64,000 nt of DNA from Waddlia chondrophila WSU 86-1044 (GCA_945882915.1 CAMCWV010000006.1:5076-69075); one strand, 5' to 3'; shown: positions 406-62,278, counted from the stretch's first letter. Notes: generated by a model from the sequence alone, not told the origin. Program-made: numbers and translations.

Positions 406-504
406 TATACTCTTCGTAGCTGGAAACGGGAATTTGGACTAGCCCGAAAGCCCCGGGAGCTTTCGGGCTAGTCCAAATTCCCGTTTCCAGCTACGAAAAG
501 TATA
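406..504. repeat. family-A palindromic MITE-like element (~100-bp form)
   Basis: TATACTCTTCGTAGCTGGAAACGGGAATTTGGACTAGCCCGAAAGC pairs with GCTTTCGGGCTAGTCCAAATTCCCGTTTCCAGCTACGAAAAGTATA. The termini are shared with more than 20 other copies in the window. Confidence 0.9.
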
Positions 505-507
505 TTT

Positions 508-579
508 AGCGGGTAACGAGGCTCGAACTCGTGACCCTCACGTTGGCAACGTGATGCTCTACCACTGAGCTACACCCGC
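508..579 (-). tRNA. tRNA-Gly (anticodon GCC)
   Basis: The reverse complement GCGGGTGTAGCTCAGTGGTAGAGCATCACGTTGCCAACGTGAGGGTCACGAGTTCGAGCCTCGTTACCCGCT folds as a cloverleaf. It has a 7-bp acceptor stem, a GCTC/GAGC D-stem, anticodon loop TTGCCAA, and T-arm ACGAG-TTCGAGC-CTCGT. No CCA is encoded. Confidence 0.93.
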
Positions 580-635
580 ATATGAGTAAAGTAGAAGTGA
601 AAAGCTCACCTCACCTTGAGATTGAAATGTTTAAT

Positions 636-707
636 AGCGGGTAACGAGGCTCGAACTCGTGACCCTCACGTTGGCAACGTGATGCTCTACCACTGAGCTA
701 CACCCGC
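636..707 (-). tRNA. tRNA-Gly (anticodon GCC), identical second copy
   Basis: All 72 nt are identical to 508-579, and the two copies are separated by a 56-bp spacer. Confidence 0.93.
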
Positions 708-801
708 ATATTTATTGTCTTATTTATTGTCTTACTGTCTGCTTTGTTGCTTTCTACCTTAAAAACCAGTCTTCCCAGTACCTCTTCCAGGTAGCGGCTA
801 T

Positions 802-873
802 AGCGGGTGGAGAGTATCGAACTCACGACATTCACCTTGGGAAGGTGACGCTCTACCACTGAGCTACACCCGC
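802..873 (-). tRNA. tRNA-Gly (anticodon UCC)
   Basis: The reverse complement is GCGGGTGTAGCTCAGTGGTAGAGCGTCACCTTCCCAAGGTGAATGTCGTGAGTTCGATACTCTCCACCCGCT. It has anticodon loop TTCCCAA and T-loop TTCGATA, with one U-U mismatch in the T-stem. Confidence 0.85.
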
Positions 874-880
874 ATGAAGG

Positions 881-1127
881 TATAAAAACAAGCGTTCGCC
901 CTCTCCAGAAGGTAACCAGCCAGAAGGTAACCAGCCAGAAGGTAACCAGCCAGAAGGTAACCAGACCGTCCCGGTCTGGTGGCTAACCTAGGTCTAAACT
1001 ACCACCAAGCAAACGTTTGTTGTAGGCTTGGGTCGGAAATCCCAGACCGGGACGGTCTGGTTACCTTCTGGAGAGGGCAAGCGCTTGTTTAGGATAACTT
1101 TTCCCATTCTCAGCTAAGAGGAGTATA
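881..1127. repeat. composite repeat: family-A variant arm(s) with a nested family-B double hairpin
   Basis: The right end ...GGTTACCTTCTGGAGAGGGCAAGCGCTTGTTTAGGATAACTTTTCCCATTCTCAGCTAAGAGGAGTATA is a full A-variant arm, the same module as at 13778 and 26635. The left arm is truncated (TATAAAAACAAGCGTTCGCCCTCTCCAGAAGG). The core at 905-1071 is family B. Confidence 0.8.
905..964. repeat. 4 x 15-bp perfect tandem repeat (CCAGAAGGTAACCAG)
   Basis: Four identical units sit on the left arm of the family-B copy. The opposite arm (1057-1071) carries a single inverted unit, CTGGTTACCTTCTGG. Confidence 0.95.
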
Positions 1128-1484
1128 AACAATATAAGGAGCTGATTATTTTTTCTGCAAGCAAACAAATCAAAAATGGCAAAGAATAACCAGGCTGCGC
1201 CTTGTCCACGGACAAAATGGACAGGCGGGGAAGCCCGTCTAAATGTACGCAAAGTGGACAAAAGCAGCATCTGAAAAAAAATAATTAATACGCAGTGTTG
1301 AATCCGCCCATGCACCTGTCCACTCGCGTCCATTGGCTGGGCAAAGCTTGTTTGGGGCCAAGCCTTCTCCCCCCTACTTTTTTTTTCATTGCGTTACTAC
1401 CGATGAATCAGTAAAATAATGTGATCATTCTTCGCGCGAAAACACCTTACGAAAATACCTTACAAGGGCGCTTAAGCATAGACT

Positions 1485-4400
1485 ATGTTGAACTTCCGCA
1501 AGCTCAGACAAGACTTCCCTCCCGTGATCCTAAAAAAGGGCAAAGAGATCTATGACAAGAAATCAGGTATCACTGCCAAGCTTTTACAACTAGATACGCA
1601 CAGCCTAAAAGTGCACAGCCGGATCCAGGGCAAATTCAACAACCATTATGAATGTGAACTGGAAATCAACCGCGAAGAATCAACAGCCACCGATTCTAAC
1701 TGCGACTGCCCCTATAATTACGACTGCCAACACTTAGCTGCCCTCGTCTACTTCCTTGAAGAACATTTAGACGAAATCGTTGTTCAATTTGCCAAAGAAG
1801 GTCCTGTAGAAACAGTTGCGAAGCTAGATGAAGAAGAAAAAAAACAGCTAAAAGAGACCTTCCAGATTGCGGCGACAAAAGAAGTTGTCCGGCAAGACAA
1901 AAAACATCAAAAAGAACTACTCCACGAATACCGCACAGCTTCTGCACTTCTTAGCGACTGCCCTTTCTTCTTGCCAGAAGAGCCCGTCACAGAAGATAAA
2001 GCCGAACTTGCTGTTATTTTCTCTCAAGGACTCAGCCCACTTACCGGCAATCATGCCTCGGTTATCGAAATCCAAATTGCCCTTCGCCTTCCTTTCAGAT
2101 CAAAGCCCCTACACATCCCTCAGCTACGTGAGTTTTTAGACGCGATTCGCAATCAAGAAGCTGTCGTAATCAATGGCAAACGCTATTACTTCACCTCAAA
2201 ATCTTTTGATGACGACAGTCAAGAGATCCTCAGTATGATGATAAACCACACCCGCTTCCCAGAGGCACAAACTGGAGAGCGCTCTTTGCGCACAGGACTT
2301 GTCGAGGGGGAAGCATTCGGCGCACTACTAGCGCACGCTCACGAGCTTGGGGGCAAGCAACCTAAAGGAGCCGCTGCAAGCGAAGGGACTGGCAGAACCC
2401 TAACCATTCCTTGCCTCTACAAAGACACACTCGAAAACCCTTTGTGCTTTTCCCCTTCAAACACATCCTTGCGGTTTACTTTAGAATACACCGAAAAGCC
2501 GACTGCAAAGATCTTTCTAAAGCCGATGATCATCCTTAACCAAGAAAGTATCCGCCCAGAAAAAAGCATCCTCTTCGAATGCCACAAGCCTGGCCTTATT
2601 TTTGAGAACACGTATTACAGGTTTCAGCCCCAAATTAAGCGGACCCACCTGCGTTACCTATCTAGCATTGGCAATATGACCATTCCAGAGCCTTTATTTG
2701 GGACATTTGTAGAGAACGCCTTGCCCGAATTGCAGCGCTTTGCAGAAGTCTCAAACAAAGAGCTCATCCAGCGCTTTGTCACCCTTCCTTATGTCGAAGA
2801 TGTCAAAGCAAGATGCAAGGTCAACTATCTTAACGGAGAGCTCGAAGCCTCTCTTTACTTCCGCTATAAAGATGCAGAAATTCCTGCTTCAGAGACAGAG
2901 CTCGACTATCATCATATCTCGACATTTGTCACAGACATGGGAATTCTCGCCAGAGACCTCGCAGAAGAACGAGAAATGCTCGACAACCTATTTCAGGACT
3001 TCGTTCTTGAACCAAAGACAGGCGCCTTTACTGCTAAAACAGAGAAAAAGATTGTCGAGTTCATGACAGAGGTTATCCCTCGCTTTCAAAACAGGGTCTC
3101 CTTTGAGTGCCCAGATAACCTTCTGGATCAGTTTCTCTATGACGAGACCCATTTTAAGCTCACCCTAAAAGAGTCCCCAACAATAGAAACCTACCAAGTA
3201 GATCTAGAAGTTCAGGGCAACCTTCAAGGAATCACGCTCGATCTTTTGTGGGAATGCATTGCTACCAAAAAGGCCTTTATCGAGCTCGATGCAAACGTTC
3301 AAAAAGCCAAAAGCGAGTCGAAAAGCGAATCTAAGCTTGGAGCTACAAAGAGCAAATCGACAACAAAACATCATAGAATTCTAGTGCTTGATCTCGAAAA
3401 ACTCGCGCCAGTCGTACAAATCTTTGATGAAATTGGGATCCAGAAACTCGATAATCATCAAGAACTGCGTCCGCTCTGGAGTCTTGCAAGCATTAATGCA
3501 GCACAATTTGAAGGGCTCCCAATTGCCTTTAAAATCTCAGACAAGCTTCTTGAAGTGCAACAGCAGATGCTTGGCCTTCGAGAAATCACTCCAAGTCCCA
3601 TTCCTGCCTGTATTAAAGCAGACCTGCGCAATTACCAAACAACAGGGATCCATTGGATCGAGAGGCTGCGTCTAATGCACCTCAACGGCATCCTTGCCGA
3701 TGACATGGGTCTTGGAAAGACCCTACAAGCTATTGTGGCGATCACACAGTACTGTGCAAGCAAATCGCCACTACCCAATATGATCGTTTGCCCCACCTCT
3801 CTTCTATACAACTGGCAAGCCGAATTTATTAAGTTCAATAAGAACCTAAAAGTCTTGGTTATCGATGGTGTCCCCAACGCAAGAAAGAAGCTCTTCAAAG
3901 AGATCCCTAATTACGACGTTATTGTTACCTCCTACAGCCTTCTACAAAAAGACATCGAAAGCTATGGGGAAACAAACTTTGGATACGCTGTGCTAGATGA
4001 AGCGCAACACATCAAAAACAGAGGAACGCTAAACGCCAAATCTGTCCGCCTCCTCCGCTCAAAACACAGGCTTATTCTGACAGGTACGCCGATCGAAAAC
4101 TCTCTAGAAGAGCTCTGGAGCCTTTTTGACTTCCTTATGCCCGGGCTACTTAGCTCCTACGATCGCTTCGTAGAAAAGTACATCCGCAACACTGGCCTTA
4201 ACCACGAGAAAAACCTCAATGGTCTAAGACAAAAGATTTCTCCTTTTATTCTCCGTCGCATGAAAAAAGATGTCTTAAGCGATCTGCCGCCCGTTTCAGA
4301 AATCGTCTACCACTGCCCACTCTCCCCTCTGCAACAGCAGCTATACAAATCGTACGCTAAGTCAGCCAGGGAAGAGCTTTCTAAACTTGTTCAGAAGGAA

Positions 4401-5107: not shown

Positions 5108-5130
5108 TAGATTCAGCTAAGAGGAGTATA
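5108..5130. repeat. solo family-A terminus
   Basis: AGATTCAGCTAAGAGGAGTATA matches the right terminus only. Confidence 0.6.
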
Positions 5131-8333: not shown

Positions 8334-8557
8334 TGCTAAAGAAGCGTTTGCTATTGGCTTAAGTCTGATGAGTCCAGCAGTTCCCACTAAATATTTTTCG
8401 CGAAGATCGAGCGTAATTTCGGGCATGGAGAAAGACGGTTTCATACCGTTCTTGCCACGAGGCGTGAGAGAACGTGAGAGTAAAACAAGAGAAAAGAGGT
8501 GTGATATTTAAAATGGATGTCCCAGACTCGACTTTAGGCTTTCTTTCAAAACAAATA

Positions 8558-16427: not shown

Positions 16428-18630
16428 AGTCTTTTTAGAGAAAAACCCCTGGATCGTCAGGCATTATCGCGCCTTGTTAAGAAGCCTGAGGCCTAAGCTG
16501 AAAAAAGGTGACAAGGAATTGATACGGCTGGCATTTGAAATGGCGGCAGATGCACATAAAACCATGCGCCGCAAAAGTGGTGAGCCTTATATTCTACACC
16601 CGATTGCCGTAGCCATGATCTGTGTAGAAGAGATTGGCCTTGGCGTAAGAAGTACCATCTGCGCTTTATTACATGATATCGTTGAAGACACCGACATCTC
16701 TTTAGAAGATGTTGAAAGAGAATTTGGCTCTGAAATATCCAAGATAGTTAATGGGTTGACCAAGATATCCAACGTTATGGATACCAATACCAGTCAGCAG
16801 GCAGAGAATTTTAAAAAGATATTACTTACCCTTACCGATGATCCAAGGGTCATTCTGATAAAACTGGCCGACCGCCTGCACAATATGCGTACGCTCGACC
16901 ACATGAAGAGTGAGAAGCAGCTTAAGGTCTCATCTGAAACTGTTTGGGTATATGCACCATTGGCCCACCGTATGGGGTTGTACACTATTAAAACGGAACT
17001 GGAAGACCTTTCCATGAAATATATGGAACCGGACGCTTACAGGGAAATTGCTAAAAAACTGTCAGAAACCACGAGAGAGAGAACCCGCTATATTAATGAA
17101 TTTGCACGCCCTTTAAAAGAAAAATTAGTGGCCGGCAGTTTTAATTTTGAGATCTGTAGCCGGCCAAAAAGCATTCACTCAATCTGGAATAAGATAAAAA
17201 AGAAAGGTGTGGCATTTGAAGAGGTCTATGACCTGTTTGCCATCCGTGTAATACTGGATTCTACTCTCGAAAAAGAAAAAGAAGATTGCTGGAAAGTGTA
17301 TTCCATAATCACTGACGAATACACCCCTTCCCCCAAACGTTTGAGAGATTGGCTCAGCAATCCCAAAAATAACGGATACGAAGCCTTACACACAACCGTA
17401 ATGGGCCCGCAGGGCAAATGGATAGAAGTACAAATACGCACGAAACGGATGAATGAAATCGCAGAGAAAGGATTGGCTGCTCATTACAAATACAAAGAAG
17501 GAAGTAATAATAAAGACCGTTTTGATAAATGGTTCGAGCAGATCCGCGAAGTACTAAGTACGCAGGATACAGATGGGGTTGATTTTTTACAGGATTTTAA
17601 AACCTCATTCCTCGCTGAAGAGATCTATGTATATACCCCCAAAGGTGAAGTAAAAATGCTGCCTACCGGCAGCACCGCTCTGGACTTTGCATTCTCCATT
17701 CACTCGGCTATCGGAACCAAATGCATCGGCGCCAAAGTGCATCATAAACTGGTGCCTATCAGTCATAAACTTCGCAGCGCCGACCAGGTAGAAATCATCA
17801 CCAGTAACAAACAAAAGCCTTCAGAAGGCTGGCTAAGCATAGCGGTTACTGCCAAAGCAAAAAGCGAGATAAAAGAGGCATTGCGCGAAGAGAAAAGAAA
17901 AACAGCCGAAGACGGCAAATATACTCTTCAACGCAAAATAGAAGCCATAGGGGCCTCATACAACCAACACACTATTGAAGAACTGGTTCAGTTTTACAAA
18001 TTGCCCTCACCGCTGGATCTCTATTTTAGGATAGCTACCAAAGCGATTGACCTGAAAGAGTTAAAAGATTTCAAGGTATTGGGTGACAGGATCGAAATTC
18101 CCAAACACAAACCAGTTATTACAGAAATTCCGGTTGATCATACTCACCAGAAAAATGATAACCACAAAGATTCTGAGTTAATTATTTTTGGCGAAAGCAG
18201 CGACAGGATTATGTACTCCCTGGCCAGGTGTTGCAACCCCATTCCCGGGGATGATGTATTTGGTTTTGTAAGCACAGGCAATGGTTTAATCATTCACAGA
18301 ACCGCTTGTCCGAATGCCACGCAATTATTAGCCAATTATGGCCATAGGGTAGTGAAAACGAAATGGGCCAAGAATAAAGAAATATCTTTCCTCACAGGCT
18401 TGAAAATTATGGGATTGGATGATGTGGGCGTAATAAACAAAATTACCAACGTGATCAGCGGCGATCTGCGGATCAATATCGCAGGCTTAACCATCGAATC
18501 AAGGGAAGGCTTATTTGAAGGAACCATCAAAGTGTTTGTACACGATAAGGAAGAACTAGAAGAACTGGTTACCCGGTTAAAATCATTGAACGGAATACAA
18601 ACAGTTGATCGTTTTGACACAGAAAACTAA
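16414..18630 (+). CDS. bifunctional (p)ppGpp synthetase/hydrolase, RelA/SpoT homologue (long RSH)
   Basis: 738 aa. The HD hydrolase domain has GEPYILHPIAVA and LLHDIVEDTD. The synthetase domain has RPKSIHSIWNKIKKKGVAFEEVYDLFAIRVIL and YEALHTTV. TGS (YVYTPKGEV) and C-terminal ACT-like regions are present, so all domains are intact. The sequence style (SIWNK..KK) recalls Bacteroidetes RSH proteins. AT content is visibly higher than in neighbouring genes. Confidence 0.9.
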   Translation: MTRHKVFLEKNPWIVRHYRALLRSLRPKLKKGDKELIRLAFEMAADAHKTMRRKSGEPYILHPIAVAMICVEEIGLGVRSTICALLHDIVEDTDISLEDVEREFGSEISKIVNGLTKISNVMDTNTSQQAENFKKILLTLTDDPRVILIKLADRLHNMRTLDHMKSEKQLKVSSETVWVYAPLAHRMGLYTIKTELEDLSMKYMEPDAYREIAKKLSETTRERTRYINEFARPLKEKLVAGSFNFEICSRPKSIHSIWNKIKKKGVAFEEVYDLFAIRVILDSTLEKEKEDCWKVYSIITDEYTPSPKRLRDWLSNPKNNGYEALHTTVMGPQGKWIEVQIRTKRMNEIAEKGLAAHYKYKEGSNNKDRFDKWFEQIREVLSTQDTDGVDFLQDFKTSFLAEEIYVYTPKGEVKMLPTGSTALDFAFSIHSAIGTKCIGAKVHHKLVPISHKLRSADQVEIITSNKQKPSEGWLSIAVTAKAKSEIKEALREEKRKTAEDGKYTLQRKIEAIGASYNQHTIEELVQFYKLPSPLDLYFRIATKAIDLKELKDFKVLGDRIEIPKHKPVITEIPVDHTHQKNDNHKDSELIIFGESSDRIMYSLARCCNPIPGDDVFGFVSTGNGLIIHRTACPNATQLLANYGHRVVKTKWAKNKEISFLTGLKIMGLDDVGVINKITNVISGDLRINIAGLTIESREGLFEGTIKVFVHDKEELEELVTRLKSLNGIQTVDRFDTEN

Positions 18631-18822
18631 CAATGGTTTGGCGTACGTCCTGTACGTCCTTAAAAAGTTATGGCAACACCTTGGCATGAGGGCCAATCAT
18701 GTCGTGGCGGTTTGGTAACGTTTCCGAATGAGCTGCGCCAAGTCGGGAGGCTTCCCTTCAAACCAGTGTAACGGGAACTCCCAGAAGTTAAGTCTCAATC
18801 TAAAACATGTCTCCCAGATTGA

Positions 18823-18891
18823 GCAATTCGCGTTGAGACTATACTGTCAACAGGTTGGAGCAGGTCCAAGATCTAGGCAATAGATTTTTTT
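18823..18891. mobile_element. solo terminal fragment of an IS (same IS as the mini-element at 59789-60003)
   Basis: CCCAGATTGAGCAATTCGCGTTGAGACTATACTGTCAACAGGTTGGAGCAGGTCCAAGATCTAGGCAATAGATTTTTTT is close to the reverse complement of 59930-60003. Confidence 0.7.
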
Positions 18892-19103
18892 CATCAATTG
18901 ACTGTTCTTTTTTTTTAATGTTAAACCCTCAGACAAAAAATACTGTTTTTCGATTATTTCCCCTCTATCTTCAAATTGTTTTTCATTCATTACTTGACAG
19001 AAGAAACCCTGTTCGCATAAATGACATTTCATGTATTTCAATAGCAAAGCATGCTTAAGCTGTATTTTGATTATTTTTTTTTAACCCCAAGTAAGGAAAC
19101 TAT

Positions 19104-19379
19104 ATGAACAGAGCAGAAATGATTGCGCACCTTGCAAAAGCAACAAAACTTACAAAAGTGGCTTCATCAAACGCATTGGATGCAATGCTTGAAGGAATTA
19201 CAAAGACCTTAAAAAAAGGACAAACTGTTGGTTTCGTTGGTTTTGGTTCATTCGTTGTTAGATCACGTAAAGCACGTACGGGTCGTAACCCACGTACAGG
19301 CGCTGCAATCAAAATTAAAGCAGCAAAGACTGTCGGTTTCCGTGTAGGAAAAGCTCTTAAAGAAACTGTTAACAAGTAG
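19104..19379 (+). CDS. HU/IHF-family DNA-binding protein
   Basis: 91 aa. MNRAEMIAHLAKAT..., GFGSFVVRSRKARTGRNPRTGAAIKIKA is the canonical HU beta-arm. Confidence 0.92.
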   Translation: MNRAEMIAHLAKATKLTKVASSNALDAMLEGITKTLKKGQTVGFVGFGSFVVRSRKARTGRNPRTGAAIKIKAAKTVGFRVGKALKETVNK

Positions 19380-19396
19380 TCTTTCTCCCCTTTCTT

Positions 19397-19441
19397 GGGC
19401 GAGCCTGCGACTCTTATAAGTCCAGTCTCGCCCTTTTTTTT
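19397..19441 (+). terminator. rho-independent terminator after the HU gene
   Basis: The GGGCGAG...CTCGCCC stem is followed by T8. Confidence 0.6.
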
Positions 19442-19715
19442 GCCCCCATCTAAAAACAAAAGAGCTTGGGCTCTTAACTACTTTTGCAACGGTTTTTGAA
19501 GAACGAAAGCTGCAAATGATGGGCCCGGCATTGTTGTGTAATTGCAATTGCAGTCCTACAGACAGCTACTCTTAGAAGGTATAATTATGCAACAATGCCG
19601 ATGGCCCTGGAATTTTCGAACCAAGCACGAGCTTTTTGTGGACATTATGAACGAAATGGAGACAATGAGCTAATTAGACATTTTTGATGAGAAACGGATG
19701 TTAAGATCGCTTTAG

Positions 19716-20788: not shown

Positions 20789-20821
20789 TCCTCGAATAAG
20801 CCAATTGCACTAGTACAGTGT

Positions 20822-20957
20822 AATGTAACCAGACCGTCCCGGTCTGGGATTTAAACTTGGCGCCCTGCAAACGTCTGCTACGGGCACAGTCTGAAATCCC
20901 AGACCGGGACGGTCTGGTTACATTCTGGTTTATTACATTCTGGTTTAAGGTTGACAA
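20822..20957. repeat. family-B compound palindrome, plus 2 x 15-bp tandem repeat at its right end
   Basis: AATGTAACCAGACCGTCCCGGTCTGGGAT...ATCCCAGACCGGGACGGTCTGGTTACATT. Each arm is itself a hairpin (CCAGACCG-TCC-CGGTCTGG). TTACATTCTGGTTTA occurs twice, at 20928-20957. Confidence 0.88.
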
Positions 20958-21060
20958 TTCACATAGCAGAGAAGGAGAAAGGCAGGCAATGCCGTTCGCA
21001 CCTCAATTAGTAATAGATTTGTTACTAATTGGCAAGCGGCAAAGCTAGACCAGCAAAGGT

Positions 21061-22443: not shown

Positions 22444-22457
22444 CTCTCAACTCCTTC

Positions 22458-25894: not shown

Positions 25895-25911
25895 TAAATC
25901 TTTCGAGAATT

Positions 25912-39608: not shown

Positions 39609-39657
39609 TATACTTCTCGTAGTTGAAAACGGGAATGTGGGCTAGCGCGAAAGCTCC
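39609..39657. repeat. family-A solo left half
   Basis: TATACTTCTCGTAGTTGAAAACGGGAATGTGGGCTAGCGCGAAAGCTCC. Confidence 0.8.
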
Positions 39658-39710
39658 AGGACTTTAGAACTAGCTTTTCTTCTAGTTATTTATGCAATTG
39701 GACACTAAAC

Positions 39711-44051: not shown

Positions 44052-44130
44052 AGCTACATATTTTAACGCAAAGGAGCAAAAGGCGCGAAGGCGCAAAGAA
44101 TAAAGATAAAAAAACAGGACGCAAAAAAGT

Positions 44131-44280
44131 TAAATAAGTGTTTGACATCTCCAAAATGTAACCAGACCGTCCCGGTCTGGGATCTAAGCTTACTGCCAAG
44201 CAAACGCTTGCTTCGGCTTAATCTGAAATCCCAGACCGGGACGGTCTGGTTACATTTTAGAGATGTCAAACACTTATTTA
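44131..44280. repeat. family-B compound palindrome with extended outer arms
   Basis: TAAATAAGTGTTTGACATCTCCAAAATGTAACCAGACCGTCCCGGTCTGGGAT...AGCAAACGCTTGCT...ATCCCAGACCGGGACGGTCTGGTTACATTTTAGAGATGTCAAACACTTATTTA. Confidence 0.88.
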
Positions 44281-44316
44281 ATTTGTTTTTATTCTGTGTT
44301 CTCCTGGGGTGAAAGC

Positions 44317-45997: not shown

Positions 45998-46064
45998 TAT
46001 ACTCCTCTTAGCTGAAAACGGGAATTTGGACGGCGCCAAAGCCCCGGGGCTGAACGATCGAAAG
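45998..46064. repeat. family-A left half (truncated in the inner palindrome)
   Basis: TATACTCCTCTTAGCTGAAAACGGGAATTTGGACGGCGCCAAAGCCCCGGGGCTGAACGATCGAAAGT. Confidence 0.8.
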
Positions 46065-46189
46065 TATGCTGTAAGGTTTACAGTCGATAACTTTTCTGAT
46101 AATCGCGTGGTTTTCCTTGAGACTTATCGAGGTAAACAGTAACATCTCTACTAGTTATTTTTTATCCCTATCACTTCAGGAATCAGATC

Positions 46190-50773: not shown

Positions 50774-50898
50774 AAAAAAACAGTTACGGCAAAAAGTTGT
50801 AATAAGAACTAGTTTATAAGAGAGCTGCTTTACAAAAGAAGCGGCATTATTTAGGAATTTTATTTTACCTGGTAACCCCTAAAAAGTCATGATAATTA

Positions 50899-51153
50899 GT
50901 AACAGTTCACATACCCCTCCTTCGTCAGCGCATGTGAACTGTTACAAACTTTTTTGTATTTTCTCTCACGTTCTCTCACGCCTCTGTGGTTAAAAAAAAC
51001 CGGTGTTAATATTTTTGAAACACAGAGAACGTGAGAGAAAATAGAGAGGGAGGAAAGCGGGCAATGCCACTTTAATCGTAAGGCTGCCAAAACACCCCCT
51101 ATAAGCGTCAAATCTTTCTTGATAAAGTCGCTCTGGGTATGTGAACTGTTACC
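50899..51153. repeat. family-C repeat (copy 3, two-ended)
   Basis: GTAACAGTTCACATACCCCTCCTTCGTCAGCGCATGTGAACTGTTAC...TTCTCTCACGTTCTCTCACGCC...TTTTTGAAACACAGAGAACGTGAGAGAAAA...AAGCGGGCAATGCCACTTTAATCGTAAGGCTGCC...GGGTATGTGAACTGTTACC. Confidence 0.88.
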
Positions 51154-51194
51154 TTTTTTCTTTGTCTATTTTTCTCTCTGTGTTTAAAAAATAA

Positions 51195-52199
51195 TTAAGC
51201 TCTAGGGTGCGCTTTATCATATGCATCTTTCTTTAATTTTGTGGAAACGTGTGTGTATATAGTTGTGGTTGCAAGCGAGCTGTGCCCTAAAAGAACCTGA
51301 ATCGTCTTAAGATCCATCCCATTTTCTAGCCAATGGGTCGCAATCGTGTGTCGAATTGTATGAGGAGTTACTTTTCCAGCAAGACCACTGGCTGTTAGGT
51401 ACTTGTCAAAATTCCTATCAACAGAACGAGCGGTCAACCGGGTGCCTAATTTATTAAGAAAAACAGCCTCTTTGTCCCTTTCTGCTAAATGTCCATCCAT
51501 GTCACGGTGCCGCTCTGGGTGATCAAGATAAGACTGAACCCAATCAGCAGCATTTTTAGTAATCGGGACAATACGCTCTTTCTTCCCCTTTCCCATTAGC
51601 TTTACAACTAGATTAGCCGGATCAAAGTCTCTTCTATTTAATGCCACAAGCTCACTTACGCGCAGCCCAGAACTATAAAAAAGCTCCATCCCACATCTGT
51701 CCCGAAAACTAAGGTATGCGCCTAACTCCGGTTGATCAAAAAGCCTTTGTACGTGCTCGTACGATAAAGGAACAGGAATACGCTTTTGCAACTTTGGGCT
51801 TTCGATCTCCTCCATGGGATTACTATTGATCATCTTTTGCCCGCATGCGAACTTAAAAAACGAACGAAGAGAAGAGACCTTCCTCACTAGAGAGCGCTTT
51901 CCCATAGATTCTCCGCCACTGAGCTTTGCCAAAAAGCCGCGCATTAACTTTCTATCCATATCTTTAAGTGAAACATGATCTGTTTTTTCGCTGCCATCGC
52001 GTCCCTTCCAGCGATCTGCATAGCTCATATCGTAGCGGATCTTTTCAGAGACCTCTTCAGGATTAAGTTTGAGAACGTCTGTGTCTAAATAGGACTTAAG
52101 CGCATTGAGATCGATTACATAGTTGCGGACAGTATGCTCAGAGGCCTGCTTAATGACCCTAAGATGCTCTATGAACTGGTATGCGGCGGTAATAAACAT
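51195..52199 (-). CDS. tyrosine site-specific recombinase, XerC/XerD family
   Basis: About 334 aa with a C-terminal catalytic HTIRHTIATHWL...LLGHSSLATTTIYTHV. ATG 52197-52199 lies 5 nt downstream of GGAG contributed by the family-A terminus. Confidence 0.9.
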   Translation of the reverse strand: MFITAAYQFIEHLRVIKQASEHTVRNYVIDLNALKSYLDTDVLKLNPEEVSEKIRYDMSYADRWKGRDGSEKTDHVSLKDMDRKLMRGFLAKLSGGESMGKRSLVRKVSSLRSFFKFACGQKMINSNPMEEIESPKLQKRIPVPLSYEHVQRLFDQPELGAYLSFRDRCGMELFYSSGLRVSELVALNRRDFDPANLVVKLMGKGKKERIVPITKNAADWVQSYLDHPERHRDMDGHLAERDKEAVFLNKLGTRLTARSVDRNFDKYLTASGLAGKVTPHTIRHTIATHWLENGMDLKTIQVLLGHSSLATTTIYTHVSTKLKKDAYDKAHPRA

Positions 52200-52202
52200 C
52201 AA

Positions 52203-52476
52203 TACTCCTCGTAGCTGAAAACGGGAATTTGGACGGTGCCAAAGCCCCCGCAGCCTTAGCGTTTGCGGTCTCCAGAAGGTAACGTGGGCCGTCTAAGGTC
52301 TGGGATTTCAGGCCGAAGCCTACAGCAAACGTTTGCTTGGTGGCAGGTTAGATCCCAGACCTTAGACAGCCCACGTTACCTTCTGGAGACGGCAACTCTT
52401 TAATCGCTACGGGCTTCTTCTCTTTTTTTTCTTTTGTGCGCCGTCCAAGTTCCCGTTTTTAGCTAAGAGGAGTATA
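52203..52476. repeat. family-A composite element carrying a nested family-B copy
   Basis: TACTCCTCGTAGCTGAAAACGGGAATTTGGACGGTGCCAAAGCC...[B]...CTTTAATCGCTACGGGCTTCTTCTCTTTTTTTTCTTTTGTGCGCCGTCCAAGTTCCCGTTTTTAGCTAAGAGGAGTATA. Confidence 0.88.
52272..52386. repeat. family-B compound palindrome (variant arms), nested in A
   Basis: CCAGAAGGTAACGTGGGCCGTCTAAGGTCTGGGAT...AGCAAACGTTTGCT...ATCCCAGACCTTAGACAGCCCACGTTACCTTCTGG. Confidence 0.85.
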
Positions 52477-52511
52477 TACTCCTCTTAGCTAAAAACGGGA
52501 ACTTGGACGGC
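52475..52511. repeat. solo family-A terminus, head-to-head with the preceding copy (72-bp perfect palindrome 52440-52511)
   Basis: TATACTCCTCTTAGCTAAAAACGGGAACTTGGACGGC is the exact inverted copy of 52440-52476. It ends on the first base of the rnz stop codon. Confidence 0.9.
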
Positions 52512-53500: not shown

Positions 53501-53605
53501 CAGCAGCTCCCACTAAAAATTTATTTTTTAACTCCTGAGAGCCAGGGCGATTTTATCAAGAAAGCTTTGACGCTCACAGAGGGGTGTTTTGGCGGGGCAA
53601 TCGCA
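53501..53605. repeat. family-C right-end fragment (inverted)
   Basis: CAGCAGCTCCCACTAAAAATTTATTTTTTAACTCCTGAGAGCCAGGGCGATTTTATCAAGAAAGCTTTGACGCTCACAGAGGGGTGTTTTGGCGGGGCAATCGC. Confidence 0.7.
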
Positions 53606-53671: not shown

Positions 53672-53734
53672 TTGGACTAGCGCCAAAGCTCCCATTTTCA
53701 GCTACGAGGAGTATATACTCCGCTTAGTTGAAAA
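53672..53734. repeat. two abutting family-A terminal fragments (right end + left end sharing TA)
   Basis: TTGGACTAGCGCCAAAGCTCCCATTTTCAGCTACGAGGAGTATA | TATACTCCGCTTAGTTGAAAA. Confidence 0.8.
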
Positions 53735-54823: not shown

Positions 54824-54905
54824 GCCTTTTCAACTTCGAAGTGCGACAAAAGAGGAGTTCATTCTACCTTCATTGAAGACCTCCAAGTATTACAGCGATA
54901 TTTGT
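54824..54905 (-). mobile_element. IS30-family 3'-end remnant (inverted relative to 25912)
   Basis: The reverse complement reads ...ATACTTGGAGGTCTTCAATGAAGGTAGAATGAACTCCTCTTTTGTCGCACTTCGAAGTTGAAAAGG, nearly the same as 25930-25998. Confidence 0.65.
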
Positions 54906-55118
54906 AGTGGACTCGCCGATCTTTTTTAAGGTATATACTCCTCTTAGCTGTTGTTTTTGGTTAAAAAACACCTAGAGGTATCCGCCATCTCTGGCCACTT
55001 TAAATTTTAATCATTTTGTCGCACTTCACTGATGAAAGGGCCTCTTGAAAAAAGCCTGCGACCTGTCAATAATGGCAATATCTTACAATTTTTTATTACT
55101 CTTAGGGAGACCATTCAT

Positions 55119-55743: not shown

Positions 55744-56589
55744 ATGGGTAATGACCAAGGCAAAAAAGCAGCTGAGACACTTGTCATCCCCTTCTCTAAA
55801 TATGTTGGAACGGGAAATGACTTTATTCTCATCGACAACAGAGAAAAGATCTTTCCTGCACACAACCGGCTGACCATTCAGCGTCTGTGCCACCGTCAAT
55901 GTGGCATAGGGGCTGATGGGATCATCCTTTTAGAAAAGGGAAAGGCCGCAGACTTTGCCATGCGTACGCTAAATGCTGACGGCAGCGAAGCCGAGATGTG
56001 CGGAAATGGCATTCGGTGCTTAACGCGCTTTCTAGAAGGGCTTGGGATCCGCAAACCCCTTTATCACATTGAAAGTGGCGGCAAATTGATCAGCACAAGA
56101 CCCAAAGAAGAGGCCATTAGCGTCGATATGGGGGCCCCTTCAGATGTCCAATGGAACATCTCTATCCCTTTAAAAACAAATTCTTATGTCGGTCATTTTC
56201 TTAATACCGGCGTTCCTCATATCGTTATCTTTGTAGAGGCCGTTCAGGCGTTAAACATTAATGCCTTAGGGCGCGAAATTCGCTCCCATTCTCTTTTTCA
56301 GCCTAAAGGGACAAATGTAAATTTTGCTTCGATAACAGGAGTAAACGAAATTACTATCCGTACTTACGAAAGAGGAGTCGAAAGGGAAACTCTTGCCTGT
56401 GGCACTGGGGCTACGGCAACAGCACTTGCAGCCGCAACTACAAAAGGACTTGCCTCCCCTATCCGTATGAAGCTTCGCTCTGGTGAATCTTTAGAAATTG
56501 CGTTCTCTTCCAAAGGTGACACCTTTGAAGAAGTTACAATGACCGGCCCAGCAACGCTCGTTTATGAAGGAAGTTTTATAGTCGATTAA
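55744..56589 (+). CDS. dapF: diaminopimelate epimerase
   Basis: 281 aa with GTGNDFILID and both catalytic Cys contexts (EMCGNGIRC, LACGTGATA). It is adjacent to clpP as in Chlamydia. Confidence 0.92.
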   Translation: MGNDQGKKAAETLVIPFSKYVGTGNDFILIDNREKIFPAHNRLTIQRLCHRQCGIGADGIILLEKGKAADFAMRTLNADGSEAEMCGNGIRCLTRFLEGLGIRKPLYHIESGGKLISTRPKEEAISVDMGAPSDVQWNISIPLKTNSYVGHFLNTGVPHIVIFVEAVQALNINALGREIRSHSLFQPKGTNVNFASITGVNEITIRTYERGVERETLACGTGATATALAAATTKGLASPIRMKLRSGESLEIAFSSKGDTFEEVTMTGPATLVYEGSFIVD

Positions 56590-56800
56590 ATCTCAAATGA
56601 TAGGCTGAGATTTAATCGACTATAAATGTAAATAAAAATCCAAGCTCCGGACGGAGCGACAGGACTTAATTTGTGCCCTCCCCCTCTGGGGCTTCTAATT
56701 TATTTATATTGACCAGGGGTTGCATGTCTTCGGGCTAACGCCCTCGCATTCCACCGCCTGGCTAAGTCCAAGTGCCCCTCCGGGACACAATTTAAAATGT

Positions 56801-56873
56801 AGGGCGCTTGCGATCGTTCAGCCCCGGGGCTTTGGCGTCGTCCAAGTTCCCATTTTCAGCTACGAGGAGTATA
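56801..56873. repeat. family-A right half (inner-palindrome arm + right terminus)
   Basis: AGGGCGCTTGCGATCGTTCAGCCCCGGGGCTTTGGCGTCGTCCAAGTTCCCATTTTCAGCTACGAGGAGTATA. Confidence 0.85.
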
Positions 56874-57024: not shown

Positions 57025-57092
57025 TATACTCCGCTTAGCTGAAAACGGGAATTTGGACGGTGCCAAAGCCCCGTTTTCAGCTAAGCAGAGTA
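57025..57092. repeat. family-A element (minimal ~70-bp form, right terminus slightly degenerate)
   Basis: TATACTCCGCTTAGCTGAAAACGGGAATTTGGACGGTGCCAAAGCCCCGTTTTCAGCTAAGCAGAGTA. Confidence 0.85.
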
Positions 57093-57199
57093 AAGATTCA
57101 AAACAAAGAAAGATTCGAGTTCGTTGAAAATAAAGGGGAAACAAGGGTATTCTCTCATCTTCTTACTTGCCGCTTTAATAGCTATTTAGACAGGTTCCC

Positions 57200-58504: not shown

Positions 58505-58800
58505 ATATACTCCTCGTAGCTGAAAACGGGAATTTGGGCTAGCGCGAAAGCTCCCGCGGCTGAACGATCGTAAGAGCCTTAGTATTAGAAATACAAAGGG
58601 CACTTGCGATCGTTCAGCCCCGGGGTTTTGGCGCCGCCCAAGTCCCCATTTTCAACTACGAGGAGTATATACTCCGCTTAGCTGAAAACGGGAATTTGGG
58701 CTAGCGCGAAAGCTCCCGCGGCTGAACGATCGTAAGAGCCTTAGTATTAGAAATACAAAGGGCACTTGCGATCGTTCAGCCCCGGGGTTTTGGCGCCGTC
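58505..58800. repeat. two tandem family-A ~165-bp copies (second lacks its right terminus)
   Basis: Copy 1 is at 58505-58669 and copy 2 at 58668-58800. Both carry private variants (GAACGATCGTAAGAGCC, GGGGTTTTGG) not seen in other copies. Confidence 0.9.
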
Positions 58801-58884: not shown

Positions 58885-59481
58885 TTATTTATTAACTTTT
58901 GCGCTTGTCATCTCTAGAAGCTCAGGGATCGTCTGCACTACAGGATCGGTGAGCGCTTGAGTTTTTGGATCGGCGTAGTAATAAAACACTTTGCCGTCTG
59001 CAACCCGCACCTGAGCAAGCGCAGGGTTAAGATAACGATCGTTTTTTGCATCCCAAAAAGCGAGCTTTATCCCTATCCGCTCTGGAAGAGGCGGTGTTGG
59101 GTTGTGAACATACGTGTCGGTTTGTTTTAAGTATTCAAGAAAAGCTGGATGATTCGTTGCCTTATCAAGAAGAGTGTTAAAAATGACAGCAATAATCGGA
59201 CGCACTTCTTCAATGGTCATCCGCCTGTGATCAACAAAACTCAGAGCAAACCCTACCCCTTGAGAATGAGCAACATCGAGAATTCCACTACATGCCAAAA
59301 GAAGATCTATCTGATTTTCTTTAGCAAGTGATTTTCCTGTAGACTCAAGCTCCTTTTCCATCCGCTGCTCCCACAAAGGGCCTGCATAAACTTTAGCGCC
59401 GCCAAAAAAAGTCAATGCACAAATAATCAAAGCTTGCAGGTATTTCAAGACTTGTAGGTATTTTTTTTGTACGTATTTCAC
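58885..59481 (-). CDS. hypothetical secreted protein
   Basis: 198 aa with an N-terminal hydrophobic signal-like segment (LQALIICALTFFGGAKVYAG). I recognise no family. The start is GTG in the track. Confidence 0.5.
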   Translation of the reverse strand: MKYVQKKYLQVLKYLQALIICALTFFGGAKVYAGPLWEQRMEKELESTGKSLAKENQIDLLLACSGILDVAHSQGVGFALSFVDHRRMTIEEVRPIIAVIFNTLLDKATNHPAFLEYLKQTDTYVHNPTPPLPERIGIKLAFWDAKNDRYLNPALAQVRVADGKVFYYYADPKTQALTDPVVQTIPELLEMTSAKVNK

Positions 59482-59788
59482 AGCTTTATCCCATCTATTT
59501 TTACAACTATCCGTAAGGCCACTGCAATACCAGATGTAAAATCATAGCGCCCGATCTATTGGAAAGCAAATCCAAATAAAAAGCGGCCCAAAAGAATCCG
59601 AAAATCGATCGAAACTTTTTACTGGGATAGGTTTAATATACAGGGCGCTATAAAATAATCTTAAAAAAACTCAGCTTTAACTGCATCTAAAAGCCTAGTG
59701 GTCGGTTAACATTCAAATTGCGGGTGCGCTAGCGCGAAAGCTGCGGAATTCCCACGATCGCAAGTGCCATAGTATTAGAAATACAAAG

Positions 59789-60003
59789 CCCAGATTGAGC
59801 AGTTTGCAGAAATAAAATTCTGATTTATAGTGATCCTCCATGAATTCTGCAACAGGGAGAGTCAGAATGGGTATGCATGCACAAGTAGAGCGGTTAGATC
59901 ATTTAGGCGTCATTGCTGCTGTGAAAAAAAATCTATCGCCTAGATCTTGAACCTGCTCCAACCTGTTGAAAGCATATTCTCAACGCGAATTGCTCCATCT
60001 AGG
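59789..60003 (+). mobile_element. internally deleted IS remnant (mini-IS): both ends plus ~20 codons of a transposase N-terminus
   Basis: The left end CCCAGATTGAGCAGTTTGC and the inverted right end (revcomp CCTAGATGGAGCAATTCGC) match at about 15/19 positions. ATG 59867 gives MGMHAQVERLDHLGVIAAV..., which resembles the DUF4277-type N-terminus of IS4/IS1634-group transposases. It is preceded (59727-59788) by a degenerate family-A inner fragment. Confidence 0.6.
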
Positions 60004-60161
60004 TAAGAAGACTTCGGCGCAGAGAATCGGTTAGATTAGATAGGACAAGGATTAGCCCGGGACGATCAAATAGCACCATTACACAAGACCAATCTTTACC
60101 TCAACTATGCCTTTAAGCTAAACTGTCACCACCTTATTTCTTATACTAAAGAATATTTAGC

Positions 60162-61184
60162 ATGGACCTGAAAAACAAGCGAATTATCATTAGCAAAACG
60201 AATCAAATTGGCGATGTCACTTTCAGCCTGCCGATGGCAAGCGCGCTAAAAAAACTCGAACCTAGTTGCCAGGTTATCTTTTTAGCGCGGGAATATACGA
60301 GAGCGCTTATTGAACAATACAGCGATGTAGATGAATTTTCTGACTATGAATCAATCGTAAAAGGGGGCATGGACTCCCTTGTTAAAGGATTAAAAGAGCT
60401 TCGCGCTGATATTTTTATTCATGTCATCCATGAACCAACAATCAGTAAGGCCGCTAAAATGGCCGAAATCCCCATCCGAATTGGCACCTGCCGGCGCCTG
60501 ATCAATTGGGTTACCTGTAACCGATTTGTAAACATCTCTCGTAGATGCTCCCGCCTGCACGAAACGCAGCTAGACATGCACTTTCTTAGACCACTTGGCG
60601 GCAAGTCTCTCTACTCGCTTAAAGAGATTATCGAGCTGCAACACTACAAACCGCTACAACAAAAAGGGTCCATTTCAACCCTTCTCAACACCAACAAATT
60701 CAACCTAATTTTGCACCCCAAGACTCGTGGAGAGCACATTGAATGGCCTCCTGAGCACTTTGCGAGACTCATTCAATTACTACCTCCAGAGACGTTCCAG
60801 ATCTTTGTCACTGGCAATGCTAAAGAAGGAGCTCAAGTTAGGGCCTCTATGCTCACCCCTTTTCCCCATGTCGTCGACCTATGTGGCAAGCTCTCATTCA
60901 ACGAGCTGCTGCACTTTATTGCAGGGGCTGATGGGATGATTTGTGCATCGACAGGTCCTGTACACTTAGCGGCAAACTTTGGCATTAATACGCTAGGGCT
61001 CTATGCTCCTATTCGCCCTTTAGATGCTGGTAGATGGGGGCCTGTGGGACCAAAAGCTGAGGTCTTAGCCCTCAAGAAAAACTGTAGTGCTTGTCGTAAA
61101 GTTAAAAAATGCCACTGCATCGCAGAGATTACCGTAGATCAAGTTTACGCAGTCGTCTCTCGATGGGAAGGTAGCCGCCGCTAA
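60162..61184 (+). CDS. glycosyltransferase family 9 (LPS heptosyltransferase-like)
   Basis: 340 aa. The N-terminal RIIISKTNQIGDVTFSLPMASALKK follows the GT9 pattern (..r.lGD.l...P....Lk), and the C-terminal GADGMICASTGPVHLAANFG follows (d.G..HlAaa.g). Confidence 0.7.
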   Translation: MDLKNKRIIISKTNQIGDVTFSLPMASALKKLEPSCQVIFLAREYTRALIEQYSDVDEFSDYESIVKGGMDSLVKGLKELRADIFIHVIHEPTISKAAKMAEIPIRIGTCRRLINWVTCNRFVNISRRCSRLHETQLDMHFLRPLGGKSLYSLKEIIELQHYKPLQQKGSISTLLNTNKFNLILHPKTRGEHIEWPPEHFARLIQLLPPETFQIFVTGNAKEGAQVRASMLTPFPHVVDLCGKLSFNELLHFIAGADGMICASTGPVHLAANFGINTLGLYAPIRPLDAGRWGPVGPKAEVLALKKNCSACRKVKKCHCIAEITVDQVYAVVSRWEGSRR

Positions 61185-61209
61185 AAGTTATTAACCAAAA
61201 GGAAATCAC

Positions 61210-61899
61210 ATGGGAAAAGACACAGAAAAACAACCACAAGTCAAACCTCTTTTTAGCAAAGAAGACCTAACCGAAGGCTCTGGCACTGCAGCGCGCAGTG
61301 GGGACATTGTTACCGTACACTATACAGGCACGCTAACTAACGGGAAAAAATTCGACAGCTCTCTTGATCGCGATGAACCCTTTGACTTTGTCCTTGGCGC
61401 AGGCGAGGTTATTGAAGGGTGGGACAAGGGTGTTGCTGGAATGAAAGTTGGCGGCAAGCGTAAGCTAACAATCCCTTCTGAGCTTGGTTATGGAGCCAGC
61501 GGCGCAGGTGACGACATTCCACCCCATGCTACGCTACTTTTCACTGTTGAACTTTTGTCTGTAGCGGCAGCACCAACAGTGACGAAGGAAGAGTTAACTG
61601 TAGGAACCGGGCCTGTGGCAAAAAGCGGAAAAATGATTAAAGTGCACTACACAGGTACATTAATTGATGGAAAAAAATTCGATAGCTCTCTTGATCGCAA
61701 AGAGCCTTTAGAGTTCAGGCTCGGAATAGGCCAGGTCATTAAAGGCTGGGACATGGGCGTTGCTGGAATGAAAGTTGGCGGCAAGCGCAAGCTCACAATC
61801 CCTCCAGAACTTGGTTATGGAGCCAGTGGCGCCGGCGGAGTCATCCCCCCAAACGCCACGCTCATATTCACCGTCGAGCTAATGGCTGTCTCTTCCTAA
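61210..61899 (+). CDS. FKBP-type peptidyl-prolyl isomerase with two tandem FKBP domains
   Basis: 229 aa. Two copies of VHYTGTL.{2}[12 protein letters not shown].{1}[46 protein letters not shown]. Confidence 0.92.
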
Positions 61900-61916
61900 C
61901 GCCAGGTCACAATTGC

Positions 61917-61945
61917 AATTCCCGTTTTCAGCTATTAGGAGTATA
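61917..61945. repeat. solo family-A right terminus
   Basis: AATTCCCGTTTTCAGCTATTAGGAGTATA. Confidence 0.8.
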
Positions 61946-62206
61946 TTTAAGGATCGAGCATCGCTCGATCTTTGGAGTGCTGGGACAAGTCCAACGCTTT
62001 CACCACTCCTCGACATGTCGAGGAGTGTACGCGCTTGTTGGGTTAGTAAAGCGTAGCAGTCCACCACATCGTACGCCGGGACATGTCGAGTCCACTCAGC
62101 CTTAGTAAGCGAGAGTTTCGTACAGTCCTCGACATGTCGAGAACTGGTGAAAGCGTTGGACAAGTCCCAGCACTCCAAAGAGCTTCGCTTACGCTCGCTC
62201 CTTAAA
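61946..62206. repeat. family-E large inverted-repeat element (~260 bp) with internal GACATGTC palindromes
   Basis: The arms TTTGGAGTGCTGGGACAAGTCCAACGCTTTCACCA and TGGTGAAAGCGTTGGACAAGTCCCAGCACTCCAAA are inverted copies with 2 central mismatches. Inside are CTCCTCGACATGTCGAGGAG, CCGGGACATGTCGAG and TCCTCGACATGTCGAGA. Confidence 0.8.
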
Positions 62207-62278
62207 TATACTCCTCGTAGTTGAAAACGGGAGTTTGGGCTAGCGCGAAAGCTCCCGTTTTCAACTACGAGGAGTATA
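62207..62278. repeat. family-A element (minimal ~70-bp form)
   Basis: TATACTCCTCGTAGTTGAAAACGGGAGTTTGGGCTAGCGCGAAAGCTCCCGTTTTCAACTACGAGGAGTATA. Confidence 0.92.

Follow-up and report, generated by a model that had tools for sequence, protein, structure and literature searches.

We were curious to see why the same short palindrome recurs in spacer after spacer of one chlamydial contig, and what kind of element it might be. The stretch analysed, hereafter the window, is 64,000 nt long (GCA_945882915.1 CAMCWV010000006.1:5076-69075), and all coordinates are those of the whole stretch. The original prediction had described a single hairpin family with terminal inverted repeats (TIRs), similar to miniature inverted-repeat transposable elements (MITEs), that saturates the intergenic space. 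We examined this family, denoted family A, and conclude with a probability of roughly 0.9 that it is a dispersed MITE-type repeat. The full history, in which a TA-targeting DDE transposase mobilized the copies in trans and the palindromes later decayed, we consider reasonably likely. Family A would then be a lineage-specific, new sequence family within a known element type, a mobile one as we infer from its sequence.

Family A is a dispersed repeat with TA-bounded ends

The 21-nt core of the family-A terminus, TAGCTGAAAACGGGAATTTGG, occurs 28 times in the window with up to three mismatches, against 0.01 occurrences expected from 100 dinucleotide-preserving shuffles, none of which reached 28. 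A 36-nt profile of the terminus (nhmmer) identified 38 significant termini (E = 3e-14 to 2e-3). The family comprises 13 two-ended copies, ∼11 one-ended copies and one remnant without termini (59725–59788), with a footprint of 23 loci and 2,413 bp (3.8% of the window). When the hits are aligned in register, homology starts abruptly at TATACTCC, and the sequence upstream of this edge is unrelated between copies. Identity among copies is 80%–95% (89%–95% for the full-length copies at four loci). Two-ended copies fall into discrete sizes of 68–72 bp (n = 3), 98–99 bp (n = 3), 146–147 bp (n = 2), 164–165 bp (n = 4) and 276 bp (n = 1). Their coding capacity is nil, with a longest stop-free stretch of 48 aa. 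Two more loci lie beyond the window, at positions 232–393 and 2933–2967 of a contig from the ENA assembly ERZ27280301 (contig L012).

The ends carry hints of how the copies arrived. TA-TAC opens 36 of the 38 termini, so the earlier statement that every end is flanked by TA fails only at 52201 (AATACTCC) and 57094 (TTTACTCT). In both of these the inner TAC(TC) is intact, a combination which suggests that the outer TA derives from the target. As had been predicted, abutting copies overlap by exactly one TA (GGAGTA-TA-TACTCC) in all three cases (52475/76, 53714/15 and 58668/69), as expected if the second copy inserted in the TA flanking the first. The flanks are AT-rich (62%, vs. 54.5% in the window as a whole); immediately outside the TA stands an A at 22 of 32 ends, and one position farther out a T at 16 of 32. 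This TA-TA context resembles the one that Tc1/mariner-type elements prefer and is consistent with an IS630/Tc1-mariner enzyme.

Thirteen of the 14 two-ended copies in the original prediction were recovered, three of them with boundaries shifted by 1–2 nt. The other, 881–1127, proved to be composite: Only its right terminus (1101–1127) is family A; on the left it begins with TATAAAAACAAGCG, an inverted end that belongs to a second palindromic family, denoted K/B. All ten solo or truncated ends named there were found again (5112–5130, 34464, 39609, 45998, 52475, 53683–53715, 54934, 56801–56873, 58668 and 61917–61945), and we add one solo end (53714–53734) and the remnant at 59725–59788. The loci are as follows, with the strand in brackets where one is assigned.

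406–504, two-ended, 99-bp class, near-perfect palindrome; 3 nt past the 3′ end of a tRNA-Gly cluster; RNA fold −82/−89 kcal/mol, z = −16.6/−18.3
1101–1127 (−), solo right terminus of 27 nt, joined via an AAGTTATCCT linker to an intact K/B element at 885–1091
5112–5130 (−), 19-nt terminus fragment; nhmmer E = 8.5e-5
12891–12988 (+), 98-bp class, central 66 bp deleted, TCG/TCG ends; between convergent ndk and ABC-ATPase genes
13778–13923, A/K chimera, 146 bp, ends of different subtypes (GCT and TCG)
20567–20730 (+), full-length, 164 bp; an open reading frame (ORF) at 19716–20603 stops at TAG, element positions 35–37
24869–24939, 71-bp class, one arm deleted; occupies the entire SIS_2-lpxK spacer
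25797–25894 (−), 98-bp class, GCT/GCT ends, opposite polarity
26635–26781, A/K chimera, 147 bp, 91% identical to 13778–13923
34464–34551 (+), left half only, truncated within the central palindrome
38027–38191 (+), full-length, 165 bp, GCT/GCT ends; DNA fold −79.3 kcal/mol, z = −18.1
38744–38907 (+), full-length, 164 bp, TCG/TCG ends; 9 nt from the stop codon of a TsaD-family (PF00814) gene, 38916–39593
39609–39663 (+), left 55 nt only
45998–46066 (−), single arm (type-2 arm and start of the central palindrome)
52201–52476, chimera, 276 bp, encloses a K/B-like palindrome; its left end sets GGAG 5 nt before an ATG of a Xer-like recombinase gene
52475–52510 (+), 36-nt terminus, exact inverted copy of the neighbouring right terminus
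53672–53734, two abutting terminus fragments, 53683–53715 (−) and 53714–53734 (+), with a TA in common
54934–54950 (+), 17-nt terminus fragment; nhmmer E = 0.0023
56801–56873 (+), right half only
57025–57094, ∼70-bp class, one arm deleted, outer TA degraded at the right end
58506–58669 (+), full-length, 164 bp, first of a direct tandem pair
58668–58800 (+), second of the tandem pair, without right terminus, TA in common with the first; identical to the first over positions 12–130, including variants private to the pair
59725–59788 (+), degenerate remnant: arm and central palindrome, no termini
61917–61945 (−), 29-nt terminus; 18 nt past the stop codon of an FKBP gene
62207–62278 (+), 72-bp class, lacks the right arm (lost between TCCCG direct repeats)

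One full-length form accounts for the size classes

Alignment of the oriented copies yielded a single full-length form of 164–165 bp, which starts with a 35-nt end and a type-1 arm (GGGCTAGCGCGAAAGCTCCCGCGGC), has the palindrome GAACGATCGCAAGTGCC-loop-GGCACTTGCGATCGTTC at its centre and continues through a type-2 arm to the second end. The complete element would measure ∼161 bp (TACTCC...GGAGTA) plus duplicated TA flanks, with nearly complementary arms of ∼80 nt. The inverted ends are conserved over the outer 35 nt; further in, the arms diverge consistently into a type 1 (GCTAGCGCGAAAGCTCC) and a type 2 (ACGGCGCCAAAGCCCC), and this difference lends the element a polarity. The GAACGATCGCAAGTGCC palindrome had been taken for a separate module nested between the termini. 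It is found solely inside family A (13 of 13 hits) and is therefore the core of the 165-bp element.

The related claim, that size classes differ only by the nested module, gave way to a history of deletions and chimeras. Copies of the 98-bp class lack the central 66 bp, with breakpoints at CCCG/CCGG microhomology, and those of the ∼70-bp class have lost one arm between 5-nt direct repeats (TCCCG at 62207; CGGGA at 24869 and 57025). Both classes are thus derivatives of deletions between 4–5 nt direct repeats, and the ∼70-bp class stems from at least two independent events in different TIR subtypes. Copies of 146, 147, 162 and 276 bp are chimeras: K/B-family sequence has taken the place of part of an arm, and to judge from these junctions K/B recombines with family A. 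Three chimeras (13778, 26635 and L012 232–393) have the same internal junctions at unlinked loci and are 89%–92% identical, suggesting that the chimera itself has spread.

Simple copies fold as single hairpins, as predicted (RNA z = −10 to −18). The DNA fold of a simple copy reaches −79 kcal/mol (z = −18), and chimeras fold less well (z = −5 to −7). As RNA, the strand whose type-1 arm comes first (5′) folds better by ∼9 kcal/mol. We considered this polarity as evidence for selection at the RNA level and rejected it, because element polarity has no consistent relation to the direction of neighbouring genes.

The two arms of a copy also vary together. TIR positions 9 and 11 read TCG, TCT or GCT, and the variant is the same on both arms in 10 of 10 simple copies and different in four of four chimeras. 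In a pseudo-hairpin alignment of the outer 26 nt of 14 copies, 93% of cells are paired and six pairs show double changes; the covariation score is 0.119 (vs. 0.082 in shuffles), a value reached by none of 500 shuffles. The simplest reading is that subfamilies go back to source copies whose ends were symmetric and that chimeras are recombinants of different subfamilies; the covariation leaves a little room for a hairpin-dependent mechanism. Two loci show growth in place. The tandem pair 58506–58669/58668–58800 is identical over 119 nt, private variants included, and differs only at TIR positions 9/11. At 52441–52510 a perfect 70-bp palindrome is centred on the common TA, since the identical, inverted 36-nt ends are joined there.

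A proposed model of spread in trans and palindrome decay

In the history we favour, a DDE transposase with TA as its insertion site and TA duplication as its product would have spread the copies in trans; its gene would lie elsewhere in the genome or have been lost. An IS630/Tc1-mariner transposase is the leading candidate, with TA-duplicating IS5-group or IS30-like enzymes as alternatives. Slipped-strand deletion between 4–5 nt direct repeats across the hairpin would have given the 98-bp and ∼70-bp classes, and recombination with K/B the 146–276 bp chimeras, which would have kept family-A ends and spread further. Local duplication could account for the tandem pair at 58506–58800 and for the 70-bp palindrome, and truncation for the solo ends.

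The prediction that the window holds no transposase was borne out: Pfam and NCBIfam scans of ORFs, together with precomputed Pfam hits, returned housekeeping genes and one XerC/D-like recombinase (51195–52202). Nor did we find an autonomous IS630/Tc1-type element within the window or the 10 kb of extra sequence examined. The Xer-like recombinase next to 52201 was considered as the mobilizing enzyme and set aside; its domain pair is the usual one of the XerC/D type, and it adjoins only a single element end.

Several observations weigh against the proposed mechanism. Neither a partner transposase nor an insertion sequence (IS) with family-A ends was found in the window or the extra 10 kb, and the exact terminus is absent from the GTDB species genomes, JGI metagenomes, IMG/VR and PLSDB. 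Other assemblies of the organism, 99.5%–100% identical, carry the same copies, and neither an empty site nor a polymorphic insertion was seen among them. Because TA and TATA read the same on both strands, a target duplication would, without an empty site, look the same as part of the inverted repeat. Copy identities of 80%–95% argue against a very recent burst, and the family may be extinct. Some copy growth was local, as the private variants of the tandem pair and the perfect palindrome at 52441–52510 indicate. Finally, a DDE transposase needs neither full-length complementarity nor arm covariation at TIR positions 9/11.

Alternative explanations

That the family is an artefact of assembly or a chance similarity has next to no probability. 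Short-read contigs do break at repeats, and one tandem pair was resolved differently in two assemblies. Against this, the same family-A copies stand at the same internal positions in ENA assemblies (ERZ27280191, ERZ27280192, ERZ27280263, ERZ27280265, ERZ27280297, ERZ27280301, ERZ28613056, ERZ28614158) and Logan assemblies (ERR3719153, ERR3719154, ERR5863109, SRR6475631) from ∼12 independent samples, at 99.5%–100% identity. This reproduction excludes an assembly artefact, which the original prediction had named as a possible refutation, and the 28 core matches against 0.01 expected speak against chance. The broken contigs are informative in themselves: They end in or beside repeats (L013 at 26729 and 33248, L014 at 1049, L026 at 59940 and 61966), the signature of a sequence present in many copies genome-wide. 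At 58506–58800, two contigs (L022 and L033) have one hybrid copy, which is copy 1 at its left end and copy 2 on its right side. We rejected this 162-bp difference as an insertion polymorphism, as a hybrid fits recombination between tandem copies or assembly collapse.

There are two biological alternatives. Family A could be REPIN/REP-like or consist of "TIR repeat" elements moved as single-stranded hairpins by a single-copy HUH tyrosine transposase (RAYT/TIRYT) encoded elsewhere in the genome. Whole elements are indeed long hairpins, many ends have GTAG at TIR positions 11–14, and arms covarying at 9/11 would be natural if the hairpin were the substrate; GTAG repeats have been reported for the PVC superphylum, as have TIR-flanked RAYT-like genes with matching TIR repeat families (PMC3733652), and GTAG-tagged palindromes of other sequence occur in a Parachlamydiaceae metagenome-assembled genome (MAG), CAVUZO010000008.1. 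Yet the tag is not conserved (GTAG in 17, TTAG in 19 and ATAG in two of 38 ends) and lies 10 nt inside the conserved end instead of at the foot of a short stem–loop, and single family-A arms are not 20–40 bp stem–loops. Moreover, IS200/IS605-type insertion makes no TA duplication, whereas family-A ends are TA-flanked and abutting copies share the TA, and the window contains no Y1 transposase or RAYT gene. We regard such an origin as unlikely. A similarly low probability attaches to the idea that the copies are hairpins selected by the host (terminators, mRNA-stabilizing or RNase III sites, nucleoid-binding sites) and multiplied by local duplication, recombination and gene conversion. It would account for the ∼10 of 23 loci within 50 nt of a stop codon or tRNA 3′ end, for the extreme stability of the hairpins and the arm covariation, for the local duplication evident at 52441–52510 and 58506–58800, and for the stop or Shine–Dalgarno/start signals supplied at 24869–24939, 20567 and 52201. 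What it leaves unexplained is that divergent, convergent and tandem spacers are equally occupied with no consistent polarity relative to transcription, that no T-run follows the copies and none was scored as a whole-element terminator, that many copies are truncated or degenerate, and that none of the other Chlamydiales loci examined contains family A. At least 23 unlinked sites with sharp, TA-bounded edges are also unlike the products of duplication and recombination.

There is also a slim chance that the hairpin as a whole, and not the pair of ends alone, is the unit that is copied or selected. The idea comes from the arms matching at 9/11 in 10 of 10 copies despite fixed asymmetries elsewhere, from the tandem pair that differs only there and from the 70-bp palindrome. 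If it were true, the element could propagate by way of an intermediate that is single-stranded or folded back on itself, for instance through an HUH-type enzyme or strand-switching during replication, and family A may have been co-opted as gene punctuation in the form of stop codons, a Shine–Dalgarno/start signal and 3′ hairpins.

Family A appears confined to one chlamydial lineage

The closest proteins to those encoded in the window come from Chlamydiales (Waddlia, Parachlamydiaceae and MAGs), in agreement with the host that had been guessed. At only 57%–66% identity, they point to a deep-branching, uncultured chlamydial host. Leveraging large sequence collections, we found no exact match to the 21-mer in 185,579 GTDB species genomes, no match to the family-A terminus in IMG/VR and none among PLSDB plasmids. 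Six degenerate 21-mer matches in JGI metagenomes were dismissed as single chance matches on unrelated AT-rich contigs, none with TATACTCC context. Ten glgP loci from GTDB genomes (glgP 41%–64% identical; 57%–64% for the Chlamydiales among them) lacked the family-A terminus, and repeats made up 0%–0.5% of equal-sized glgP loci of other Chlamydiales, with one exception at 4.3%.

Family A matches no catalogued repeat family in Rfam, again as anticipated. At the gathering threshold the window gave tRNAs and RNase P only, and at a relaxed threshold the hits were sub-threshold eukaryotic miRNA-precursor models, which respond to generic long hairpins. Literature searches turned up no MITE family described for Chlamydiae; the Waddlia genome paper covers only repeats >200 bp and transposases (PMC2878342).

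This lineage is not alone in having small repeats, as palindromes of other sequence in the unrelated Parachlamydiaceae MAG mentioned above (contig L003) attest. Its GTAG-tagged palindromic repeats (GATGTAGGGGCGCAAGTCGGGTTT) lie at 4270–4363 and 407–446, and two 145-nt inverted repeats (20300–20444 and 21461–21605), 99% complementary to each other, enclose 1016 nt. These may belong to a REP/RAYT-like or IS-like system in another chlamydia.

Variation between samples of the organism itself is sparse. The few SNPs lie mostly within 59235–62022. Contig L012 matches the window at 99.9% over 17594–33257, where an 18-bp in-frame indel in the gene for 2-oxoacid dehydrogenase E2 (21869–21886) is the sole difference in 15.6 kb, and then diverges inside a hairpin of family C, a composite repeat described below. 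Beyond this point it carries one end of family A, an ORF of 769 aa without a Pfam hit, and one copy each of family A (162 bp) and family C. The departure is either a repeat-mediated haplotype rearrangement or a chimeric join. The 769-aa ORF between two family-A copies was rejected as an IS, for the outer element ends face the gene, the wrong topology.

Genomic context and possible effects on genes

Repeated DNA detected by self-comparison amounts to 5.8 kb, or 9% of the window, and to 5.05 kb once tRNA copies and one intragenic duplication are left out. These small repeats are 98% intergenic and account for 36% of the intergenic total; their overlap with ORFs is 115 of 5053 bases, all at gene ends (20567 and 24939). 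Among internal spacers >100 bp, 17 of 28 contain family A and 24 of 28 contain any repeat. The claim of saturation by one family needs correction: Family A is in most of the larger spacers, but alone it covers 3.8% of the window, and the 36% figure is reached only with at least three other repeat families.

Family A is spread equally over divergent promoter, convergent 3′ and tandem spacers, and at ∼10 of its 23 loci a stop codon or tRNA 3′ end is no more than 50 nt away. Read inward, the terminus of the type-1 arm has stops in all three frames within 37 nt (TAG at 12–14, TGA at 16–18, TAG at 35–37). Read outward, the terminus ends in ...GAGGAGTATA, so that each has an outward-facing GAGGAG followed by TATA. 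Together these features would let copies be tolerated flush against gene ends and starts. The copy at 24869–24939 supplies the TAG stop of the upstream SIS_2 gene, as well as the GGAG and the A of the ATG of lpxK. We infer that the stops, GGAG motifs and hairpins may act on neighbouring genes; when co-transcribed, a copy would add a very stable hairpin to the 3′ end of the mRNA. A terminator scan of the window found no T-run after family-A hairpins and scored none as a whole-element terminator. An outward promoter, TTCCCA-N17-TATAnT, present at some ends (13897–13925 and 20593–20565) with agreement at nine of 12 positions, was also considered and not retained, since a scan gave 28 hits, not clearly above the 19.5 ± 4.4 in shuffles.

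The window encodes a SNF2 helicase, mreB, GTP-PEPCK, two Ser/Thr kinases, ndk, relA/spoT, lpxK, glgP, pyruvate dehydrogenase E1, dnaJ, lon, an ABC-F ATPase, clpP, dapF, three tRNA-Gly and RNase P RNA. The tRNA-Gly genes are in tandem (508–579, 636–707 and 802–873; two identical GCC and one CCC), and the cluster has a K/B copy 12 nt upstream and a family-A copy 3 nt beyond its 3′ end.

Comparison with known repeat families

Bacterial MITEs are noncoding elements of <200 bp with TIRs, 5′-TA-3′ termini, a target-site duplication and a long stem–loop (PMC2229807). Family A resembles this type, as defined by Delihas, in being small, noncoding, TIR-bounded and intergenic, with TA termini and a long stem–loop. 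In behaviour it seems closest to Correia/NEMIS elements and also close to RUP; we detected sequence kinship to neither. Correia elements are not known to have a cognate transposase or to resemble family A in sequence beyond the terminal TATA.

Like family A, Correia elements are small, noncoding and TIR-bounded (TIRs of ∼24–26 bp), start with TA and duplicate TA; they come in two size classes that differ by an internal segment (107 vs. 155 bp; internal 50 bp), are mostly intergenic, fold as whole-element hairpins and can give neighbours expression signals (PMC2229807). Family A differs in its longer inverted ends (≥35 nt) and arm complementarity (∼80 nt), its higher local density (23 loci in 64 kb) and its host, Chlamydiota as opposed to Proteobacteria. 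RUP is a noncoding MITE of ∼107 bp that inserts at TA, has stops in all frames and is present in about one hundred intergenic copies; a transposase of the IS630 family is believed to mobilize it in trans, the link being the similarity of its TIR to the resident IS630-Spn1 together with the TA targets (PMC2229807). Its TIR is short, though (9 bp contiguous), and for family A no matching IS was found in the sequence examined. ISY100 shows TA duplication, a preference for AT-rich TA context and a transposase that binds the TIRs (PMC2170065), features reminiscent of family A; ISY100 and other IS630/Tc1-mariner elements are autonomous, ∼1 kb long and encode their transposase, as family A does not.

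The remaining parallels are looser. REPs and REPINs are high-copy intergenic palindromes whose 20–40 bp stem–loop units are tagged on one side by GTAG or CGTC, REPINs being paired inverted units that form a non-autonomous hairpin of ∼100 bp, but family A does not conserve the GTAG/CTAC tag, its arms are not short stem–loops, and REPs insert without TA duplication. RPEs are palindromic repeats of 100–150 bp in an obligate intracellular bacterium (Rickettsia). They typically lie in frame inside genes, often without terminal TA, whereas family A is intergenic and clips the last codons of two ORFs.

Chlamydial genomes are, by textbook account, repeat-poor and stable. Short palindromic repeats covering 9% of 64 kb, with one MITE family in most spacers, contrast with this picture. 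For repeats >200 bp, the Waddlia paper (PMC2878342) gives a share of 0.04%–4.9% in the sequenced Chlamydiales that it compares. The repeats explain why the short-read MAGs of this organism are shattered, offer a ready marker for strain typing and recombination, and may rewire the expression of lpxK, the xer-like gene and the tRNA-Gly cluster. Family A would be another orphan TA-flanked MITE like Correia, notable for its density and host phylum and not a new kind of element.

Other repeats and genes in the window

The K/B family is present at 885–1091, 20822–20924 and 44128–44283, nested within 52201–52476, and as arm fragments inside 13778–13923 and 26635–26781. Its ends read AAAYAAGYG...CTCCAGAAGGTAACC; at 885–1091 the ends are AAACAAGCG... 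and the core is CCAGACCGTCCCGGTCTGG, and this copy includes four tandem 15-mers (CCAGAAGGTAACCAG). The small hairpin CCAGACCGTCCCGGTCTGG sits in each K/B arm (12 matches vs. 0.02 expected).

Family C is a composite repeat of ∼275 bp (8553–8835, 33212–33488 and 50894–51165) bounded by inverted GTAACAGTTCACATAC (eight matches vs. 0.01 expected). It has three modules, each of which is also found solo (10474–10554, 38660–38720, 30446–30515, 25638–25723 and 53501–53593). A perfect 52-bp palindrome (TTTATAGTCGATTAAATCTCA...) lies at 56575–56626, and two inverted repeats have their two copies in distant spacers: one of 79 bp (18813–18891 vs. 59925–60003) and one of 62 bp (25935–25996 vs. 54824–54885).

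Finally, we noted a few features of the genes themselves. Two eukaryotic-type Ser/Thr protein kinase genes are adjacent (8913–10463 and 10682–12295). The FKBP-type isomerase gene (61210–61899) has a 248-bp internal duplication, 61315–61562 and 61642–61889, whose copies are 81%–85% identical. A FliS-family (PF02561) gene stands beside a DUF8042 gene (31933–32376 and 32376–33020); flagellar-type chaperones are unusual in the chlamydial phylum.

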